Source: Leucoraja ocellata (lineage: Eukaryota). From it: a stretch of DNA of 64,000 nt. Below the pieces are notes generated by a model. The model searched no databases and was not told where the DNA came from. It saw only the letters and a list, made by a program, of their open reading frames with translations. The stretch is taken from positions 2,666,001-2,730,000 of the forward strand of contig JAWMAR010000252.1 of the NCBI GenBank assembly GCA_036785375.1, in the 5' to 3' direction. A program made the translations under genes and the position numbers. Positions 12,806 to 54,029 of the stretch are shown here, piece by piece (within the stretch, counting starts at the first letter, position 1; each line of letters opens with the position of its first letter).

Positions 12806-13031
12806 ACTCTCAGAATCGAGTGGTACACTATTGTGATTGGATCAAATAGCAAACTAAATGGCTTTGATAAAGTGTCAAGACTGAGATCACAGCCTTACAA
12901 AACACATCATTTAAAATTAGAAGTGCTTTCAAAATGTCACTTCGTCGGAGGCTTAGCTCTCTGCAGTGACCTGCTTTTGTTGCTGTCATGCTGTCAGTTT
13001 GTGATTTAGCTTTGACTGCTGTCAGCGGGTA

Positions 13032-14635
13032 CAGTGCCCTACATAATGTTTGGGACAAAGACCCATCATTTATTTATTTGCCTCTGTACTCCACAATTTA
13101 AAATTTGTAATAGAAAAAAAATCACATGTGGTTAAAGTGCCCTTTGTCAGATTTTATTGCTGCTTGAAGTTTGCGATTCATGGACATCACCAGTTGCTGG
13201 TTTTCTTCTCTGGTGATGCTCTGCCAGGCCTGTATTGCAGCCATCTTTAGCTTGATTGTATTGGGGGCTAGTCCCCTTCAGTTTTCTCTTAATCATATAA
13301 AAGGCATGCCCAATTATGTTCAGATCGGGTGATTGACTTGGCCACTCACAAATTGACAATTTTTTAGCTTTGAAAAACTCCTTTGTTGCTTTTCAGATTC
13401 AGATTCAGATTCAGATTCAATTTTAATTGTCATTGTCAGTGTACAGTACAGAGACAACGAAATGCATTGCAGAGACAACGAAATGCTTTTGCTTTGGGAT
13501 CATTGTCTTGCTGTACAATGAACCAGCGGCCAATGCGTTTTGAAGCGTTTGTTTGAACTTGAGCAGATAGGGTGTGTTGAAACACTTCAAAATTCATTAT
13601 GCTACTACCATCAGCAGTTGTACCATCAGCAGTTGTATCATCAATGATAAGTGAGCCAGTACCATTAGCAGCCATACATTCCCAGGCCATAACACCCACA
13701 CCACTGTGTTTCACAGATTAGGTGGTATGTTTTGGATCTTGGGCAGTTCTTTTCTCTCCTCCATACTTTGCTCTTGCCATCACTCTGATATAAGTTAATC
13801 GTCATCAAGACACGGTTCACAAGACCTTTTTTTTCCCCAGAACTGTGGTTTCTCTTTTAAGTGCTTTTGGCAAAATGTAACCTGGCCATCCTATTTTTGC
13901 TCTAGCCAGTGGTTTGCATCTTGCAGTGTAGCCTTTGTACTTTTGCTGAAGAAGTCTTCTCCGGATAGTGGTCATTGACAAATCCACACTTGACTCCTGA
14001 AAGGTGTTTTTGATCTGTCGGACAGGTGTTTGGGGATTTTTCTTTATTATAATGAGAATTCTTCTGTCATTTATCAGCTATGGAGGTCTTCCTTGCCTGC
14101 CGGTCCCTTTGCGATTAGTATGCTCACCAGTGCTCTCTTTCTTCTTAATGATGTTGCAAACAGTTGATTTTGGTAAGCCTAAGATTTGACTGATGTCCCT
14201 AACAGTTTTATTCTTGTTTCTCAGTCTCATAATGGCTTCTTTGACTTTCATTGGCACAACTTTGGTCCTCATGTTGATAAACAGCAATAAAAGTTTCCAA
14301 AGGTAATGGAAAGACTGGAGGAAAGACTATGTACTGGGAACTCTCTTATACCTGCATTAAGGAGGCATTTAACACACCTGAGCAATTGCAAACACCTGTG
14401 AAACCATGTGTCCCTTACATTATGGTGCCCTGAAATGGGGGGACTATGTATAAACACAGCTGTAATTTCTACATGGTGAAACCAAAATGTATAAAAATGC
14501 TTTATACAACAATAAAATCTGACAATGTGCACTTGAACCACATGTGATTTTTTCTAGTAGAAATCTCAATTTGTGGAGTATAGAGGCAAATAAATAAATG
14601 ATGGGTCTTTGTCCCAACCATTATGGAGGGCACTG
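13032..14635 (-). mobile_element. Tc1/mariner transposon, defective (copy 1)
   Basis: TA-CAGTGCCCT...AGGGCACTG-TA termini; transposase motifs KHSGVGVMAW, QQDNDPK, WPSQSPDLN and an N-terminal HTH on the minus strand; frameshifts and a deletion in the left TIR. Confidence 0.92.
13393..13488 (-). mobile_element. Very short LINE 3' tail (Rex1/Babar-like, (TGAATC)n) inserted in Tc1
   Basis: (tcagat)n + ttttaattgtcattgtcagtgtacagtacagagacaacgaaatgc; same sequence as 48993-49053. Confidence 0.75.
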
Positions 14636-14828
14636 TAGCTCCTGTGGATAAACTTTACACATGTGAGTGTGAAATGCATAATTGAAACTGTATTCACCCC
14701 GCTTGCATGAAACATGTTTACCTGCAACACATTATAACAGCCCTTGCATGCAAAGTAACAGGGATAAAGGGAAAACAAATACGCATATTTCAAGTCCAAG
14801 GCATTTAAAACAGAATAAAGGTTAATGT

Positions 14829-43017: not shown

Positions 43018-43743
43018 GGATATGGAATACATTGCCTGCGTTACAGCGGATACAGATTTGGTTGTGGCATTGAACATGTACGTGGATAAATATCTGAAAG
43101 AATTAACAGAACTATGGATGAGGCAAGGGAAATAAGGTTTCATGTTGAGTGGCCTCCTGTGCTGTAACCATTCTGTGGTTTTACATTTCATAATTATATC
43201 TATTCCATTGTGGTTACGGCTGTGCCTAGGGATTGGTGGTAAAGACGGGAATTTTTAAGACTTCTTAGTCCTGACATTCCTTTAATGTACAGTGCCCTCC
43301 ATAGTGTTTTGGACAAAAAACGATCATTTATTTATTTGCCTCTGTACTCCGTAATTTGAGATTTGAAATAGAAAAAAAAATCACATGTGGTTAAAGTGCA
43401 CATTGTCAGATTTTATTAAAGGCCATTTTTATACATTTTGGCGTCACCATGTAGAAATTACAGCTGTGTTTACACATAGTCCCCCATTTCAGGACACCAT
43501 AATGTTTGGGACACATGGCTTCACAGGTGTTTGTAATTGCTCAGGTATGTTCAAATACCTCCTAAATGCAGGTACAAGAGAGCTCTCAGCACCTAGTCTT
43601 TCCTCCAGTCTTTCCCTCACCTTTGGAAACTTTTATTGCTGTTTATCAACAGGAGGACAAAAGTTGTGCCAATGAAAGTCAAAGAAGCCATTATGAGACT
43701 GAGAAACAAGAATAAAACTGTTAGAGACATCAGTCAAACCTTA

Positions 43744-43959
43744 CGCCCCTGTCCCAATTAGGAAACCTGAACGGAAACCTCTGGAGACTTTGCGGCTCAC
43801 CCAAGGTTTCCGTGCGGTTGCAGGTGGTTGCCGGAGGTTGCAGGTAGTGGAAGCAGGTAGGGAGACTGACAAAAACCTCCGGGAACCGCGTGGAAACCTT
43901 GGATGGGGCGCAAAGTCTCCAGAGGTTTCCGTTCAGGTTTCCTAAATGGGACAGGGGCA
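43744..43959. mobile_element. Palindromic Harbinger-like MITE nested in Tc1
   Basis: gcccctgtcccaattaggaaacctgaacggaaacctctggagactttgcg ... and its reverse complement; TTA/TAA flanks at a site reading caaaccttaggc in the uninterrupted Tc1. Confidence 0.85.
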
Positions 43960-44320
43960 TAAGGCTTACCAAACTCAACTGTTTGGGGCATCATTACGAA
44001 GAAAGAGATGGTGAGCTTACTAATCGCAAAGGGACTGGCAGGTCAAGGAAGACCTCCACCTCACGCTGATGACAGAAGAATTATCTCTATAATAATGAAA
44101 AATCCCCAAACACCTGTCCGACAGATCAGAAACACTCTTAAGGAGGTAGGTGTAGATTTGTCAATGACCACTGTCTGCAGAAACAGAAATATAGAGGCTA
44201 CACTGCAAGATGCAAACCACTGGTTAGCCGCAAAAATAGGATGGCCAGGTTACGGTTTGCCAAGAAGTACTTAAAAGAGCAACCACAGTTCTGGAAAAAG
44301 GTCTTGTGGCCAGATGAGAC

Positions 44321-44466
44321 TTCTTCTTCTTCTTCTTGCGTATGGCGTGCACAGCCTAAAGTTGTAGAACAACTTGTTCTATATGATCTTATTTGATTTT
44401 GCATGCCGGGTTGATTGCATTCGTCGAAATAGGGCGGACCACGTGAAGGTTGCAATCTTCCACCCC
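44321..44466 (-). mobile_element. GAA-tailed SINE-like element, copy 3, nested in Tc1
   Basis: (ttc)n tail; duplication of cagatg(a/g)gac on both sides. Confidence 0.78.
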
Positions 44467-46519
44467 AGACAGATGGGACGAAGATTAACTTATATCAAAG
44501 TTATGGCACGAGCGAAGTATGGAGGAGAGAAAGAGCCCAAGATCCAAAGATTACCACCTCATCTGTAAAACACAGTGGTGGGAGTGTTATGGCCTGGGCA
44601 TGTTTGGCGATTTAAGGAATTCGCTCACTTATCTTCATTGATGATACAACTGCTAATGAATTCTTAAGTGTTTCGACACATCCTATCTGCTCAAGTTCAA
44701 ACAAATGCCTCAAACTCGTTGGCTGGCAGGTCATTCTACAGCAAGACCATGATCCCAAATATACTGCTAAAGCAACAAAGGAGTTTTTCAAAGCTAAAAA
44801 ATGGTAAATTCTTGAGTGGCCAAGTCAATCACCTGATCTGAACCCAATTGAGCATGCCTTTTATACGCTGAAGAGAAAACTGAAGGGGACTAGCCCCCAG
44901 AACAAGCATAAGTTAAAGATGGCTGCAATACAGGTCTGGCAAAGCATCACCTGAGAAGACACCCAGCAACTGGTGATGTCCATGAATCGCAGACTTCAAG
45001 CAGTCATTACGTGCAAAGGATATGCAACAAAATACTAAACATGACTACTTTCATTGACATGACATTACTGTGTCCCAAACATTATGGTGTCCTGAAATGG
45101 GGGACTATGTGTAAACACAGCTGTAAATTCTACATGGTGATACCAAAATGTATAAAAATGGCTTTTAATAAAATCTGACAATGTGCACTTTAACCATATG
45201 TGATTTTTTTTCTATTACAAATCTCAAATTGTGGAGTACAGAGGCATATAAATAAATGATGGGTCTTTGTCCCAAACATAATGGAGGGCACTGTATGTTA
45301 TGCCTGATGTCTATGTGGGTGGTTATCTATGCAGGTGGATAAGAACACCCTTGGGGAGGGTCCCTGAGTCCCATCGGAAATTCTGTGATTTGGGTTGAGT
45401 TAGTTATTTTGGATAGGTATCCATTGCTATCAAGCAACTAAGGAGTTCAACTCCACTGTATGAAAGAGCCATATTGCCGGATAGTTGGATTCATCTTGCC
45501 TGTTGAAGTTCCCTGCAGAAATGTGAACAATCTTGAGTTTTAAAACACACTGAAAACTGAAGACGTGTTCCGACCCGAAACGTCACCCATCCTTTTTCTT
45601 CAGAGATGCTGCCGGACGCGCTGAGTTTCTACAACACTTTGTGTCTATCTTGAGTTTTACATTTCTTGCTTTCCCAAGGGCAGCTGATTGCTCTGAAATA
45701 TTTACAACTTGCCTTATGTCAGCCTCTTTAACATTGAAACAAATGGCACTTCAGAGATGTACCAAAAGAAAGCAATTATCAGCTAAAGGACAGCTTCCTA
45801 AATGATTAGGCATTCCATCATCATCCTGTTTTCAGGTTAATTGAAATCCTATTGAAAATATGACAACAGTCTCCTTTTGTAATATTTTAGGTATGATTGA
45901 CTTTGAAAGGAACAGTTTGCAGCAATAGTAAATTTACTCAAATAAAAATATTAACAATGTAAAAACTAGTGCTTGGTTACATTTTTATTCCTACATTAGC
46001 AATGTAGAAATTAATAGTTTCATTTTCATTTTAGATTCTCTTTGTAAGCCACACTTGTTGCTGCAATTATCTTTAAACAAAGAAAGTACCGATTTCAGAT
46101 TTCGTTGGTGGGACCTTTTGTGCATTTTGTGACATGTTGTACTTTTTGGTGTGAACTGTTTCAGTTCAGAAGGGGGGGGGGGGGGGGGGTGGCCAACACA
46201 ACAATTAATTAATTACATACGCACAACAATTAAGCACAACCTTGTCAGTCGTGCATTCACAGGGGTTGAAAATGCAGAAGCCACTGCCAGTTGAACACAG
46301 ACACAGTCCATACTACTGGGATCAGATGTTGGAGGAGACTGTACCAGGTGCTACTATGACACCAACTGCCGTGAAGATTGAAGATTACTCCTGTTGGAGA
46401 CATCTGATACTGTAAATGGAGGAGAACCAAGAAAGGACAATGGGGCTATTGACCCTACTTTTTATCATGTGGTTGGCCCATGATGGGCTGGACTTGGGGA
46501 ACCACCCCTGCACCAAAAC

Positions 46520-46573
46520 ATCCTGAATAAGGTTGACAACTGTCCTTACGTTTATAACAATGACAAAGATGGA
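46520..46573 (+). pseudogene. Thrombospondin type-3 repeat fragment ([18 protein letters not shown])
   Basis: Matches the THBS1/2 DNCPYVYN.D repeat that lies upstream of the part found at 51274; short. Confidence 0.6.
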
Positions 46574-46594
46574 TCCATTGCCACAGGTTCTTGA

Positions 46595-46742
46595 AACAAC
46601 CATGAAAAGATGGCAGCTTATCCTGGAGCTACAGACCGAGCTGAAACAGAGGAGAAATGTGCTCACCAATGCCCAGTCTGAAAATGACCATCTTGTTTCC
46701 ATCACACAGCAGCTGAAGGAGAGCAATCAGGTTGTTGAGTTG
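46595..46742 (+). pseudogene. BICD2: BICD2 processed fragment (NHEKMAA / [40 protein letters not shown])
   Basis: Close match to recalled BICD2 NHKKVAA...[40 protein letters not shown], with an internal deletion. Confidence 0.85.
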
Positions 46743-46926
46743 AAAAACCTTGATTTTGGAGTGCAACTCAGTCACAGAACTGGATGGAGGTAATTCCCAG
46801 CCGGGATCAAAGTGAGGAGCTGAGTTGGGATGGATCAGACAACCAGTTGGCATTGATGGAGAAGTAAGAAAAATGCTGGTTTCACACGCTGATGGACAAC
46901 TTGGGAGGAAGAACAACTTGATTTGT

Positions 46927-47300
46927 GAAAAGCAACTACATTAGTGATGAATGTGGACAGACTTTCAAACAGCAGAAACACTTGTCAGTTCAACAAATGA
47001 GCCATACTGGAGCAAAACCTTTGCAGTGTGAAGTTTGTGGTTCCCAGTGCAGGCAGAGAGCATCCTTGAAATACCATATGACCAAGCACAAGGCAGAAGC
47101 CAAACTTGAATTTGCTTGTGACCAATGTGAGTAGCGGTTCGAGAAAGCTCACAATTTGAATGTTCATATGTCCATGGTTCATCCCTTGACCCAGAATACA
47201 GATAAAAACAAACCTATTGAAATTGAATCGTCAGCTAAGTATAGAAACATTAATTAAGCAGGAACCCAGTTAATAGTTATTCAACGGCTAAATGATGAGT
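46927..47300 (+). pseudogene. ZNF276: ZNF276 processed fragment, C-terminal zinc fingers
   Basis: NYISDECGQTFKQQKHL...GAKPLQCEVCG.QCRQRASLKYHMTKHKAE..LEFACDQCE*RFEKAHNLNVHMSMVHPLTQ; in-frame stop at 47131; no introns. Confidence 0.9.
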
Positions 47301-47543
47301 AAAGAATCTTGCACCCTTTTTCAATGTCAGCAAGACACAAAGGATTAGCATGAATAAATGCAATCAAGCCCGGCTCATCTCAAATAGGTAGAGCAATGGA
47401 AAGGTTAGTGTGGAGAATATAGTTCTGAGTATTATAACACACCAGTTAGAGAGACAAAGTCCAATGTCTGCAATAGGATAGAGGTGAATCAGGCAGAATC
47501 CTCGCAATTGGAAGGACTGTTCAGAACTCTGATAACAGAGGGC

Positions 47544-48348
47544 CAGTTACATCCTGGACATGCATTCAAGTCGCAGCATTGTTTTGAATGAGGGACAGTG
47601 CCCATCCAGTAGAATTAAGGACTCAATGGATGGTTCAATAACCCTTTCACCTTGGAATGGAACAGTGAGTTAAAATGGTGATGGTGATAATGTTGCGAAG
47701 CATCACCCTGTCCCAGTGTTAGCAGACTTTCAGTCTTGTACATAGAGTGGAGCCACTTCGCAGTCAGTGGATGTGGACAACTGGGAATCCCCATTGAAAA
47801 AGGATATGTTCTTGTGCTCAGATCCTGAATATACAGAGTATTCTTGAGAAAAAGTTCAGGTACAAGATGCAATTCAACCATTAAATGTGAAAAAAACAGT
47901 TAACTGCAATGAAGCAACTTTTCTATAAGAAACGATGTTATAGACAGATTGGAGTCCAGTGATCTTTCTGAAAGGTATTTATCAAGTGAAGATGACAGAG
48001 AAATAAAAGTTAAGAATGGCTCATCAGATGAGTCTTTTCAACCATATTGGAAGAAGAAGATTAAGTTACCAGTTAAGAAGTGCAATATTAAGGATGTGAA
48101 GATACAATCTGGACAAAAACGTGGCTGGAAACCAAAGTCAAACTTGGAAAGGGAAGATTTCCCCACCGTGTATCGATGTCAGTATAAGGGTTGCTGTGCT
48201 GTTTACAGAGGAGTTGACGGGCTTATGAAACGCATAAAAGAGCAGCAGGAAGAGGTGCGTGAAAGACCTTGCCCCACCCAGGATGTAACAAGGTGTTTCT
48301 GATTGATCGCTACCTGCAGCGCCATGTAAAGCTGATCCATACAGAAGA
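47544..48348 (+). pseudogene. ZNF276: ZNF276 processed fragment, middle region and first zinc fingers
   Basis: SDLSE...SSDESFQPY...EREDFPTVYRCQYKGCCAVYRGVDG...EEVRERPCP/HPGCNKVFLIDRYLQRHVKLIHTE with frameshifts; left edge approximate. Confidence 0.88.
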
Positions 48349-48432
48349 AAGAACATCTTTGCAGATCAGGAGGAAGTGCAAAGTTTTTGGTCACAACTTT
48401 GGAAAGACAAACCACATTTGATCAACAATCTT

Positions 48433-51149
48433 TATTTAAATCTTTTTATTTGAATTTCACAGCAATTTGCATACATACAATGATAACAGACAGTGACAGT
48501 CAAGGCATAATTGTGCAACAGTATGTAAGCGACCCTCAAAGCCCTTACCCTTGCCCACCTTCAACCCACCCGAATCGGGTCGGAACGAAACGGGGACAAA
48601 CAACACTCACATACGTACACATCCACACAAATATGGTAAGATAAACGAAACAAAAAGTACTAAAGAAAAAAAAAAAGAAAAAAAGGGGGGTCACTAATAA
48701 CAGCAAATAAGTAAGTAATTAAATTAATAAGGGTGGGGAGGGGGGGGGTTAAAGGGAGAGCAGCTGCAGTAGAGCAGAACAATGGTGGAGAGCACTGAGT
48801 TCTCTTCCGAGTCCGGGGACAAGTTGAGAGAGTTAACAAGTTCCAAGAAAGGGTTCCATGTATCTAGGAATGTCTTGGTAGAGCCTTTGAGAGAGAACCT
48901 AAGTTTTTCAAGCTTTAAATTGTAAAGCACCTCCTTCATCCAGCGGGCGTGTGTCGGGGGACAGGTGAGCCTCCAGTTAAGCAAGATCAGATGATTCAGA
49001 TTCAATTTTAATTGTCATTGTCAGTGTACAGTACAGAGACAACGAAATGCATTTTTCAATGTTTCCCATCTCTTCTTCAGTGATCCAAAATGCAAAGCTT
49101 TGGTCTGGGGTGTGTTTCTCGGAGATCTGCACCAGCTCTGATTTGTAAATCAACTTCTTCAACTCTTCTGTCGAAATCTTATCTGACTGTCCTTTAGCTT
49201 CCACCTTGAAGGATGACATTAAGTATCCAGTGTTGACTTTCTTGGTTTCACTGAAGTTTGGTTCAATCTCCACTCCATCAGAATCAAACTTTCTTTTGTG
49301 GATTTTCGTTGGCTTAATATACAGAATGAAGTAACGGTACTTACTGTCGGTCTCGTCCTCGATCTGATGCCGGGTCACCAGCAGTAGTTCCCCTTCCAGC
49401 ACCGCACCAGGACCACATGGTGTCCGTGTGGCGGTGGCGGTGGCCGGGGTCCAGCAGCCGGGGAGGCGGTGTCGATGCACCGGGTCGACCCGCAGCCGCT
49501 CGTCGCTGGGTTAACAAGGTTGTAAAAGCTAGGACCCGTTTCACCGCAACAGAGAGGTTGGTGTTGGGAGGGGTACCGGAAATGGCTGACAGTGGGTTTG
49601 GAGGAATAGCCTGGCCATAGGCTCTGCTTATCAAGTCGAAAGCACTCCTCCAAAAGGCTGCTAGCATCTGTTGCAGGTGTCCCTAACAGCGGGGTAAATT
49701 CTAGATAATCTTGCATTTGTGTAGTGGACTTTGTGAAGGACTTTGCATTGGATTAGGCCATGACGGGCACATATGGAGGAAGAATGGATCAAATCCAAGG
49801 CAGATTCCCATTGCTGGTCTGTTAGTTTCGTATTCAGCTCACCCTCCCACACAGCTTTTAATGAGGTATGAGGTTTCAATATAACCGACCCTAACAAGTT
49901 ATACAAAACAGAGATGCATTTCTTCCGGTTGGGATCTAGAGCTAACATGGTATTGGTCAGGGTTTCAGGGGGGCGATTTGGGAAATGGGGGAATGTCTTC
50001 TTCACAAAATCCCTAATCTGGAAAAAACGAAAAAGGTGGGAGTTTGGGAGGCTGTAGTTGGACGAGAGCTCCGCAAAGGACGAAAAGATGTCATCCTTGT
50101 ATAGGTTTTTGATACTACTGATACCGTTGCTGTGCCAGGTTTTGAATGCGGGGTCTGTACTTGAAGGTTTAAAGATGTGGTTTTTAAGCAGTGGGGTCAA
50201 GATGGAAGGGCCTTGTAAACCAAAGTTTTTCCTGAGTTGACTCCATATCTTGAGCGAGAGGGACGCAATTGGGCCTGCACCCACAGATGTTATAGGAAGG
50301 GGGAGTTGGGAGCATAGGACAGACCGCAACGGAAGACGTGAACTCGCCTTTTCCATGTGTACCCAGGTCGGTAGGTGGTCGCAATCATCATTCATCCAAT
50401 ACAGGAGTTTTTGCAAGTTAACTGCCCAATAGTATCGCCTAAAGTCAGGAAGTGCCAAACCGCCGTCACTCTTAGGAGACTGCAGTATCGCCTTTCGGAT
50501 TCTAGCCGGTTTGCTACCCCATAAAAATTTAGATATTGTCCTTTCTAATTTATCAAAAAAAAGATTTAGTGATAAGTATAGGGACGTGCTGGAAAAGATA
50601 CAGGAATTTGGGTAGGACAACCATCTTGACCAGATTTATCCGGCCCACGAGGGATAGCGGTAAAACTGACCGGCGGTCAAAATCTCTTTCGGCTTTCTCA
50701 ACCAGAGGCAGAAAGTTTGTGCGGAACATATCAGATAAGGGTGTTGTGATAAAAACGCCGAGGTAGCAAAACCCGTCCTCTGCCCATTTGAATGAGGTTA
50801 AAGAGCGAGGGAGCTGCTTAGCCAATGAGTTAATCGGTAATAGCTCACTCTTTTGGTAGTTCCAGTTTGGTGAACGCTGCATTGAATTCTGCCAGTAGCG
50901 ATATCTTGTGCTCTGTTAACATGGCTGCTAGCGTGGCCACGCCGGTGCTGGTCGTCGGGTGTTCCGTCTTTTGCTCCTCTTTCTTTCCTCTGCCTGGCAT
51001 CTTTATGGCGTGGAGAGGTGCTGTCAATAGTGTTTAAATATTTATGGGTAGTTATAAAACTTAGGCTGAGCTATAATAAAAGTTGGAGGTGAACAGGTCG
51101 GGAGCGTGGAAAAGTGCGACTGCTCCAACATGTCGCCCCCAGCGGGTCT
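48433..51149 (-). mobile_element. Internally deleted L1-clade LINE (5'UTR + ORF1 start fused to the C-terminal half of ORF2 + 3'UTR)
   Basis: 16-bp TSD TTTGATCAACAATCTT (48417-48432 / 51150-51165); ORF2 motifs YLGV, LSLVGRINLVKMVVLPKFLYLFQ, GGLALPDF..YYWA, C..C; AATAAA near the 3' end. Confidence 0.92.
49055..49508 (-). pseudogene. ARPIN: ARPIN processed cDNA fragment (about residues 6-150), fused 3' to a LINE tail
   Basis: RLPGCW.PA...GAVLEGELL.VTRH...RYFILYIKP..IHKRKFDSDGVEIEPNFSETKKVNTGYLMSSFKVEAKGQSD...FAFW matches recalled Arpin; open frame, no introns. Confidence 0.92.
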
Positions 51150-51273
51150 TTTGATCAACAATCTTGAAGCATTTTGAGCTCTATCGTATGATCAAGGGTC
51201 TAGAAAGAGAGAAGCTGAACATTTTGAAACAGATGGACCTCTTGAAAGAGATTCCAGGAAGATAATCTCAAAG

Positions 51274-52027
51274 CTGGTGGGGAATCAGTGTGATGACATT
51301 CAGCACATTGATGAGGATGGCAATGATGGTGTTTCTGATGAGAAGGACTATTGCCGTTTTGTTCCCAACCCTGACCAGATCGATGCCGATGGTAACAGCA
51401 GAGGAGACAACTGCAAGGACGACTTTGACAACAACATCCCAGATATCTATGACGTGTGCCCCGAGAACAGCGCCATCAGTGAGACTGATCTGAGGATGTT
51501 TCAAAGGGGACGATGCAGATCGTTCCTAACTGGGTAGTGCCCAACAAGGGCAGGGAGTAACTGCAGACCGCCAACTCTGACCCTGGCCTTGCTGTCGGAT
51601 TTGAGGAGTTCAACGCTATCAACTTCAGTGGCACCTTCTAGATCAACACAGACTACAATCTACGCTGGCTTTGTCTTTGGCTTCCAGTCCAGCAGAGGCT
51701 TCTACGTGGTGATGTGGAAACAGGCCATCCAAACCTACTAGGAGAAACTGTCCAAACTCCTGGATATGCTAGCGTCTAGATCAAGGTGATGAACCCCACC
51801 ACAGGAGGAAAGTGGAGTGGAGGGGAGGGGAGTGGAGAGGGGGGGGGGGGGGGGGTGGAGTGGAGAGCACCTCACCTGTGCAACGATCTATGAAGAGAAT
51901 AGCAACACCCTCGGACAGGTGCAAACTTTATGGCACAACCCCTTTCGGCTGAAAGGATTACACCCCCTACAGGTGGCACCTGATCCATTGACCCTAAACA
52001 AGCTTCATCGGGATGGTTGTCAATGAA
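51274..52027 (+). pseudogene. THBS2: Thrombospondin-2-like (subgroup A) processed fragment: type-3 repeats + C-terminal L-lectin domain
   Basis: LVGNQCD...[90 protein letters not shown]; stops and deletions; no introns; THBS1 vs THBS2 not certain. Confidence 0.85.
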
Positions 52028-52154
52028 GAGAATGAGAACTGGTTGCCATACCATTGGTTTGATGGACTTTGGGGTACTGTGATACATTATGGCTCTATCA
52101 TTCAGCTAATCATTTCTCTAATACTTGCGACCAGTGTGTGTACCTACCGAGGAC
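52028..52154 (+). mobile_element. Candidate retroviral env TM-subunit remnant + PPT remnant
   Basis: ENENWLPYHWFDGLWGTVIHYGSIIQLIISLILATSVC: Trp-rich juxtamembrane segment plus hydrophobic anchor; GAGGAC immediately before the TG of the candidate LTR. Confidence 0.5.
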
Positions 52155-52725
52155 TGTGAATGTTATCATTTTTGATAAAAATGAGGGCATGAAAGAGCTA
52201 ATAGTCAAATCTAAAATGGAGTCGTTCTTCTACAAACGCATGGTCTAGCAAAACAAAAGAATTGCTCGGTGCCAAGTCTGAATGACATTGTAAATTATGT
52301 GGAACACAATATGGAGGACGTTGTCTTTTTAATAAAGAAATTAAGATGGGATCCTGCAGTAATAACATGTGCTTCTTCAAGGCCATAAAGAAGCCAAGAT
52401 TGAAAAAAATAGCTGACGCCCTAGAGATAAGTAATAACTTGTTATTGGATGAGCTGATTTAGACCCAGCTTTACTATATTGTGAAAGGCTACAGAATCTT
52501 TCAGTCATGCCATATTCAGACTTGGTCGGTGTTTTACTGATAAAAAAAATGTATAATTGTGCTCACTCGCCTTTGTTTTTTGAGTGGGAGCACGAGAAGC
52601 ACTGAGCACTGTATTTGCTCATTGTAATCTTGCCACTTCCGTCTGACGAATCAATTAAAGATTGCCAATTCTTTCAAACCTTCAACGTTTGTTGCTATCT
52701 GCTTTTTAAGAAACAAACTTTCACA
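52155..52725 (+). mobile_element. Candidate 3' LTR (571 bp)
   Basis: TGTGAATGTT...AACTTTCACA termini (9/10 inverted match, TG..CA); TATAA at 52552, hairpin 52559-52593, ATTAAA at 52654, in U3-R-U5 order; no partner LTR found. Confidence 0.55.
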
Positions 52726-53955: not shown

Positions 53956-54029
53956 CAATGGAAGAATTAGATGGAGATGAGATCCGGATATCATCAAGAG
54001 GAAGATATGCCGAGAGAGATATTGTTCAG
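53956..54029 (+). CDS. CPNE8: Copine-8 exon ([24 protein letters not shown])
   Basis: ttgcag acceptor, gtaag donor; LDGD...RDIVQ motif. Confidence 0.96.

Follow-up and report, generated by a model that had tools for sequence, protein, structure and literature searches.

The 64,000-nucleotide (nt) window of Leucoraja ocellata DNA analysed here (all coordinates are positions in this window; the assembly searched comprised 3.44 Gb in 5847 contigs) contains one copy of a multicopy element in which pieces of four host genes (THBS2, a BICD-family gene, a CRACR2-like gene and ZNF276) are followed by a long terminal repeat (LTR). The cargo reads as nested and not as a serial string, THBS2[BICD + CRACR2-like[ZNF276]], and the ZNF276 piece is circularly permuted. 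It is tentatively proposed, with slightly less than even confidence, that the element represents a vertebrate retrovirus-like family that captured messenger RNAs (mRNAs) stepwise and whose stages are extant; that the one-lap permutation of ZNF276 is a fossil of re-entry of reverse transcriptase (RT) combined with an RNase H gap or, alternatively, of a non-canonical RNA circle that had been packaged; and that antisense-competent copies of the four host genes are thereby present at more than 100 loci across several skate species. The order of the blocks and their sense orientation, as given in an earlier sequence-only reading of the window, were reproduced by tblastn and Pfam (Table 1).

Table 1. 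Features of the window copy, in order of position; aa, amino acid; ERV, endogenous retrovirus; UTR, untranslated region; TSD, target-site duplication
Position	Strand	Feature	Basis
46172..46196	.	G-run and short linker; truncation point (5' LTR, leader and gag-like part lost)	shared sequence continues upstream of 46197 in other copies; run X3 contig
46197..46410	+	putative broken retroviral integrase C-terminus (..TPTAVK..)	tblastx to PF18697-positive ERV of same genome
46411..46517	+	stub after pol, expected env start	position only; common to other copies
46518..46573	+	THBS2 piece 1, aa ~811-833, begins at parent exon start	89% to parent exon C76:1448009; tblastn (46520-46573)
46590..46746	+	BICD-family mRNA piece, two exons joined, internal deletion	94% / 93% to two C249 exons
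46747..46916	+	CRACR2-like piece, 5' half, ends in 8-bp repeat	joined directly to 48346 in ZNF276-less C227, C836
46929..47542	+	ZNF276 3' part: aa ~518 to stop and 3' UTR, last intron gone, ~127 nt of UTR deleted	parent exons C242:709100, 718433
47536..48353	+	ZNF276 middle part, six exons joined (aa ~242-518), ends few nt into seventh	parent exons on C242
48346..48432	+	CRACR2-like piece, resumed past second 8-bp repeat	same join in C227, C836
48433..51149	-	L1-like insertion, later, internally deleted, outside family	16-bp duplication 48417-48432 / 51150-51165
48987..49508	-	Arpin mRNA piece 49056-49508 fused to repeat tail 48987-49054, within L1-like insert	PF10574 E 3e-52
51166..51253	+	CRACR2-like piece, last part	common to other copies; same fusion in P0121
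51254..52027	+	THBS2 piece 2, aa ~847-1132, no introns, internal deletion	87% and 91% to parent exon C76:1449525
52028..52156	+	Trp-rich and hydrophobic tail, env-like by position only	19-aa Kyte-Doolittle mean 1.76; 43 codons before purine tract
52177..52189	+	polypurine tract	purine run abutting LTR in 3' LTR copies
52190..52725	+	3' LTR, 536 bp, TGAAAG...TTTCACA	genome-wide repeat; TSDs at solo LTRs

The nesting was read from the ends of the pieces and from copies lacking ZNF276. THBS2 piece 1 stops ~28 nt before the start of piece 2 in the parent, so that all cargo between the two lies inside THBS2. The copies on contigs C227 and C836 pass from 46914 directly to 48346 without ZNF276; 46747-46916 and the block from 48346 are therefore one gene piece split by ZNF276, whose 5' portion had formerly been left as unassigned (46745-46925). 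The 8-bp repeat that flanks ZNF276 occurs once in C227 and in C836. At a diagnostic THBS2 dinucleotide, parental letters were found in 4/4 ZNF276-less records and in 0/28 informative ZNF276-bearing records (two further ZNF276-bearing records and the window are deleted at this site; one unclassified record is derived). Because the ZNF276-less records retain the parental letters, ZNF276 would have been the last to enter, and the comparison favours its addition to an element that was already mobile; serial rounds of capture, as earlier suggested, thus gain support from the ZNF276-less copies. Two records without ZNF276 (L042 and L056) carry ~280 bases of other sequence in place of the mid-cargo, window-equivalent 46708-48368. 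The joint 46564->51267 in run X19 was not counted as an intermediate; it may be plain THBS2 mRNA.

Introns of the parent genes are missing from the ZNF276, BICD and THBS2 pieces, which cross parent exon junctions as predicted, and the cargo is without poly(A). ZNF276 (closest matches, skate proteins at 87%): aa 519-618 aligned at 46934-47233 and aa 245-~518 at 47545-48350; the six exons in 47536-48344 have counterparts in the C242 parent that are spaced by introns of ~1-5 kb, and the 3' block fuses two parent exons 9 kb apart and continues into the 3' UTR. THBS2: the tblastn alignment of piece 2 (aa 854-1132 at 51268-52027) extends over exon ends of the parent on C76, and TSP_3 and TSP_C Pfam matches were obtained in the cassette. 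BICD: the parent exons on C249 lie ~6 kb apart, the C234 paralogue reaching only 73%; a BicD Pfam match (E 1.5e-11) was obtained at 46527-46790, and a PDB search with the piece was blank. The gene is presumably BICD2. The parent BICD exon (L076, C249:3156980-3157330) shows a one-base gap relative to the copies, possibly an assembly error. For the CRACR2-like pieces, nothing usable was obtained from Atlas and only weak chance matches from PDB, and no parent gene was located; the earlier name CRACR2A found no database match, and the name used here is our assumption.

The order of ZNF276 is circularly permuted: the insert has both its start and its end at codon ~518, within the 8-bp repeat. Its start lies among the first few bases of the exon beginning at aa ~516, and its end returns there with a few-base overlap. 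In longer copies, the UTR jumps to ZNF276 aa 105 (seam spanned in 12/40 matches listed) through a 7-nt microhomology; aa ~106-241 were later lost from most copies, that in the window included. Both ends of ZNF276 likewise show 7-8 nt of microhomology, so that the microsimilarity used to recognise LTR-mediated retrocopies is present at the ZNF276 seams. One record (L071, C468:1361350) is a deletion derivative in which the first ~60 nt of an LTR abut ZNF276 aa ~106-502, the join lying at a short motif common to both.

The backbone carries the marks of an LTR retroelement. A genome search with the terminal unit gave 932 candidates, and 40/40 scored matches were 86-100% identical, in agreement with the repeated LTR postulated in the sequence-only reading; its bounds (52155-52725) had to be corrected, since the true start is at 52190 (TGAAAG), just after the polypurine tract. 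The solo-LTR set comprised 29 loci, 5 of them unparsed; after exclusion of three 3' LTRs mislabelled as solo, 12 true solo LTRs were counted, flanked by a perfect 4-bp target duplication in 9/12, by one with one base off in 2/12 and by one with two bases off in 1/12. A copy on C90 has both LTRs (92.4% alike) with an identical 4 bp outside each, so the placement of the element inside LTRs holds for this copy and fails for the window copy, which is 5'-truncated and has no 5' LTR; other copies extend upstream of 46197 with shared sequence. In three copies, the 5' LTR is followed by sequence that, save for 1-3 differences, is the complement of the 3' end of a tRNA-Ser(AGA) gene from the same genome. 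Fuller copies combine two direct LTRs with TG...CA ends, the tRNA-Ser primer site, the putative integrase tail, the polypurine tract and the short (4-bp) target duplication.

What had been listed as unassigned at 46230-46519 probably begins with the C-terminus of a retroviral integrase according to tblastx against one PF18697-positive ERV, at weak E values (window, 0.002; two other copies, 2e-5 and 5e-4; range, 2e-5 to 3e-3). Direct Pfam matches to this remnant were absent from the window and seven other copies, and a homologue search was also blank. The copies examined retain no RT of their own. The family is likely a class-I-like ERV. The env anchor of the sequence-only reading could not be upheld beyond position and hydrophobicity: no homologue of 52028-52156 was found in Pfam, by phmmer (1.84 billion representatives) or by tblastx against one other ERV stretch, and the sole phmmer match, a repetitive, bacterial-looking protein, was judged spurious.

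The following was observed on ERV sequences of this genome and on the fuller copies. Class-I-like ERVs are abundant in the genome: a search for the MLV-type integrase C-terminal family gave 1852 candidates and 150 scored matches. Between leader and integrase, fuller copies (L082:1100-2800, L069/L064) have ~1.7 kb without a Pfam match, which may be degraded gag or further host cargo. At C90:5316800-5321850 (L019/L068), a Gypsy-type gag-pol, broken but with RVT_1, RNase H and rve matches, takes the place of the leader end, the gag-like part and the integrase core and joins the element at window-equivalent 46244; it was found in one copy only and is possibly an additional capture. C668 and C74 were rejected as further copies with Gypsy gag-pol inside the element, only the Gypsy part being matched.

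When the match lists were merged, at least 133 distinct loci were obtained, spread over 103 contigs; in 72, the 5' half or two or more captured genes were seen. The total of 133 includes haplotype duplicates and perhaps plain single-gene retrocopies. Because the assembly holds near-identical record pairs, as seen in a tree of 30 copies, independent insertions may be about half of the 133 loci. Both halves of the cassette are collinear with many loci, and the same short BICD piece occurs at no fewer than 49 loci. Four chimeric junctions were spanned in 24, 26, 30 and 28 of the 30 best-matching loci, and flanks beyond the LTR are unrelated between copies. The tree is star-like (median end branch, 0.038), which suggests that the four-gene form spread as a burst. 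In 17 copies compared with the large exon of parental THBS2, codon positions 1/2/3 differ by 5.4/6.7/7.8%; replacements number 184, silent changes 89 and stops 10 (shared changes counted repeatedly); decay of the cargo looks near-neutral. Of the gene-shuffling vehicle earlier envisaged for a multicopy element, the multicopy state is thus confirmed, and the making of functional genes is unsupported. The same fusion with the same internal THBS2 deletion is present in the NCBI protein P0121 of Leucoraja erinacea, filed as 'thrombospondin-2-like', which is a copy of the element's fusion and not the THBS2 gene; annotation is polluted to that extent, and the family will inflate skate gene-family counts and RNA-seq mapping for the captured genes. 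Small RNAs against the parent genes may also arise from it. Among the public runs listed as containing the cassette, none is recorded as RNA.

It is considered quite likely that a defective class-I-like ERV took up spliced host mRNAs by microhomology-guided RT switching, in successive rounds, and was then spread by a helper. The genes of the ERV would have been lost and its cis signals retained, namely the LTRs, the tRNA-Ser primer site, the leader and the polypurine tract; in helper-made particles, RT would have switched at short microhomologies to co-packaged spliced mRNAs and back. Most of env would have been replaced by THBS2, BICD and CRACR2-like RNA would have entered within THBS2, and ZNF276 would have entered last, within the CRACR2-like piece, before the burst of the four-gene form. 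One ZNF276 mRNA would have been entered twice: RT, moving 3'->5', would have entered first at codon ~518 and copied to codon 105, jumped via the 7-nt microhomology to the 3' UTR of the same molecule, and run back to ~518, where an RNase H cut would have forced it off, with return to the element at the repeat that it had left. Because RT would have stopped at its own RNase H gap, the exact one-lap length would need no coincidence. For this re-entry and RNase H step, belief and doubt are about equally balanced, and a recombining circle of complementary DNA (cDNA) or a non-canonical RNA circle yields the identical ZNF276 structure.

Several points weigh against this account. A comparison with both parents for microhomology was possible at no more than some of the seams; a Pfam match to the backbone was obtained in no ordinary copy examined, the ERV class being drawn from a weak tblastx similarity, LTR ends, primer site and 4-bp duplications; and no helper sharing the LTR of the family was identified. 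The order of captures hangs on one dinucleotide, and the four ZNF276-less records look like two lineages: in C71/C45 the region is replaced by ~280 unrelated bases, and the clean join is found only in C227/C836. The ZNF276-less pair is not basal in the tree (unrooted, no outgroup), and among the 60 matches listed there was no copy with uninterrupted THBS2.

Capture at the DNA level is judged unlikely. In that case cDNAs made by the RT of long interspersed nuclear elements (LINEs) or of ERVs, or cDNA circles, would have been patched into breaks of the provirus by microhomology-mediated repair, and the ERV would only have amplified the product; for ZNF276, a cDNA circle with its closure at the 7-nt seam would have recombined at the shared 7-8 nt, duplicating that stretch. 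A single crossover between circle and target does give an exactly permuted insert with a short flanking repeat, and break repair capturing reverse-transcribed spliced mRNA is reported (PMC4516963). However, the four checked pieces are all sense relative to the element, where break repair should show no orientation bias, and co-packaging explains repeated captures by one small element more easily than DNA repair. Copying of ZNF276 from a packaged, covalently closed circular RNA (circRNA), traversed once, is very doubtful: it would account for one exact lap with the same start and end, and packaging of circRNAs in retroviral particles has been reported (10.64898/2026.01.21.700838), but a canonical back-splice was rejected, the seam being mid-exon at aa 105 with no GT donor in the UTR and 7 nt shared, so that only a non-canonical circle is left; the donor-acceptor back-splice expected of circRNA-derived pseudogenes is absent there. 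Successive L1-driven retrocopies in an old provirus with segmental duplication, or an assembly chimera, are scarcely credible: L1-type insertions are present in family copies (window copy included) and near-identical pairs in the assembly, but the copies lie on more than 100 contigs with unrelated flanks past the LTR and 4-bp duplications, the cargo has no poly(A), and the cassette is covered by four independent public sequencing runs, recorded as four organisms, one of which (a contig of run X3, 45700-46321, 10 differences, independent of the assembly) spans the 5' junction of the locus, P0121 supplying the same fusion from a named skate assembly.

Capture by template switching in an LTR element, as preferred here, has known counterparts and constitutes no new category. 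In acutely transforming retroviruses, the virus's own genes are replaced by spliced host mRNA at microsimilarity, one gene each and without nesting. Pack-MULE, Pack-TIR and Helitron elements, which are DNA transposons, are also mobile and carry several gene fragments, whereas the skate element has LTRs and carries spliced cargo. LTR-mediated retroposition, as presented in the main text of PMC5131818, is alike in its partial, intronless, poly(A)-less mRNA pieces within LTR elements and in microsimilarity at the switches; multi-gene chimeras and re-transposition as non-autonomous elements are described there, with a mouse 'Super' retrocopy (four genes and Alu, one locus) and nine fly retrocopies at 18 insertion sites. 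Compared with the cases given in that text, from which the term 'circular' is absent, the skate four-gene chimera occupies dozens to more than 100 loci, is nested, has a candidate earlier stage and includes a permuted mRNA. HERV-K capture of FAM8A1 (same source) likewise replaced retrovirus genes with spliced host mRNA at microsimilarity, with one gene and no nesting. Maize Bs1, according to PMC13317346 and PMC5131818, is also an LTR element with three unlinked host gene pieces and switch points common to all copies; it differs as a plant element of 1-5 copies with a translated chimeric reading frame, against the far more numerous skate copies with decaying cargo. In the literature searched, which lay outside most subscription journals and repeat databases, no vertebrate family was found that is this large, nests its cargo, includes a permuted mRNA and retains an earlier stage (supplements of PMC5131818 may hold closer cases). 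Oncogene transduction rests on retroviral capture of cellular RNA, and natural intermediates seldom survive; here one genome offers numerous copies, seams resolved to the base and a candidate for an earlier stage, so that serial and single-round capture can be tested by comparison of copies, and the permuted ZNF276 gives a specific, in-tube testable prediction on RNase H-forced switching.

The L1-like insert was found to be later than the cassette and private to the window locus, since an empty site was present in 25/25 informative other copies (29 examined) and the insert has a 16-bp duplication; the joint 48416->51150 in run X3 also corresponds to its absence. The later L1 of the sequence-only reading stands in this respect, with the addition that it contains an Arpin mRNA piece. 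The L1 label was given by resemblance, no Pfam match having been obtained for it in the insert. The L1-like insert is present without the Arpin piece in runs X3 and X19 (joints 48989/48990->49508); the piece looks like a separate LINE-driven chimeric retrocopy.

Downstream of the cassette, a same-strand copine exon was recognised by Pfam (E 0.001) at ~53957-54029; the cassette probably sits within a copine intron (one exon checked). Window positions 43283-45300 and 13023-14644 are occupied by DNA transposon-like copies with long inverted repeats and transposase-like frames, which we take to be of the Tc1/mariner type.

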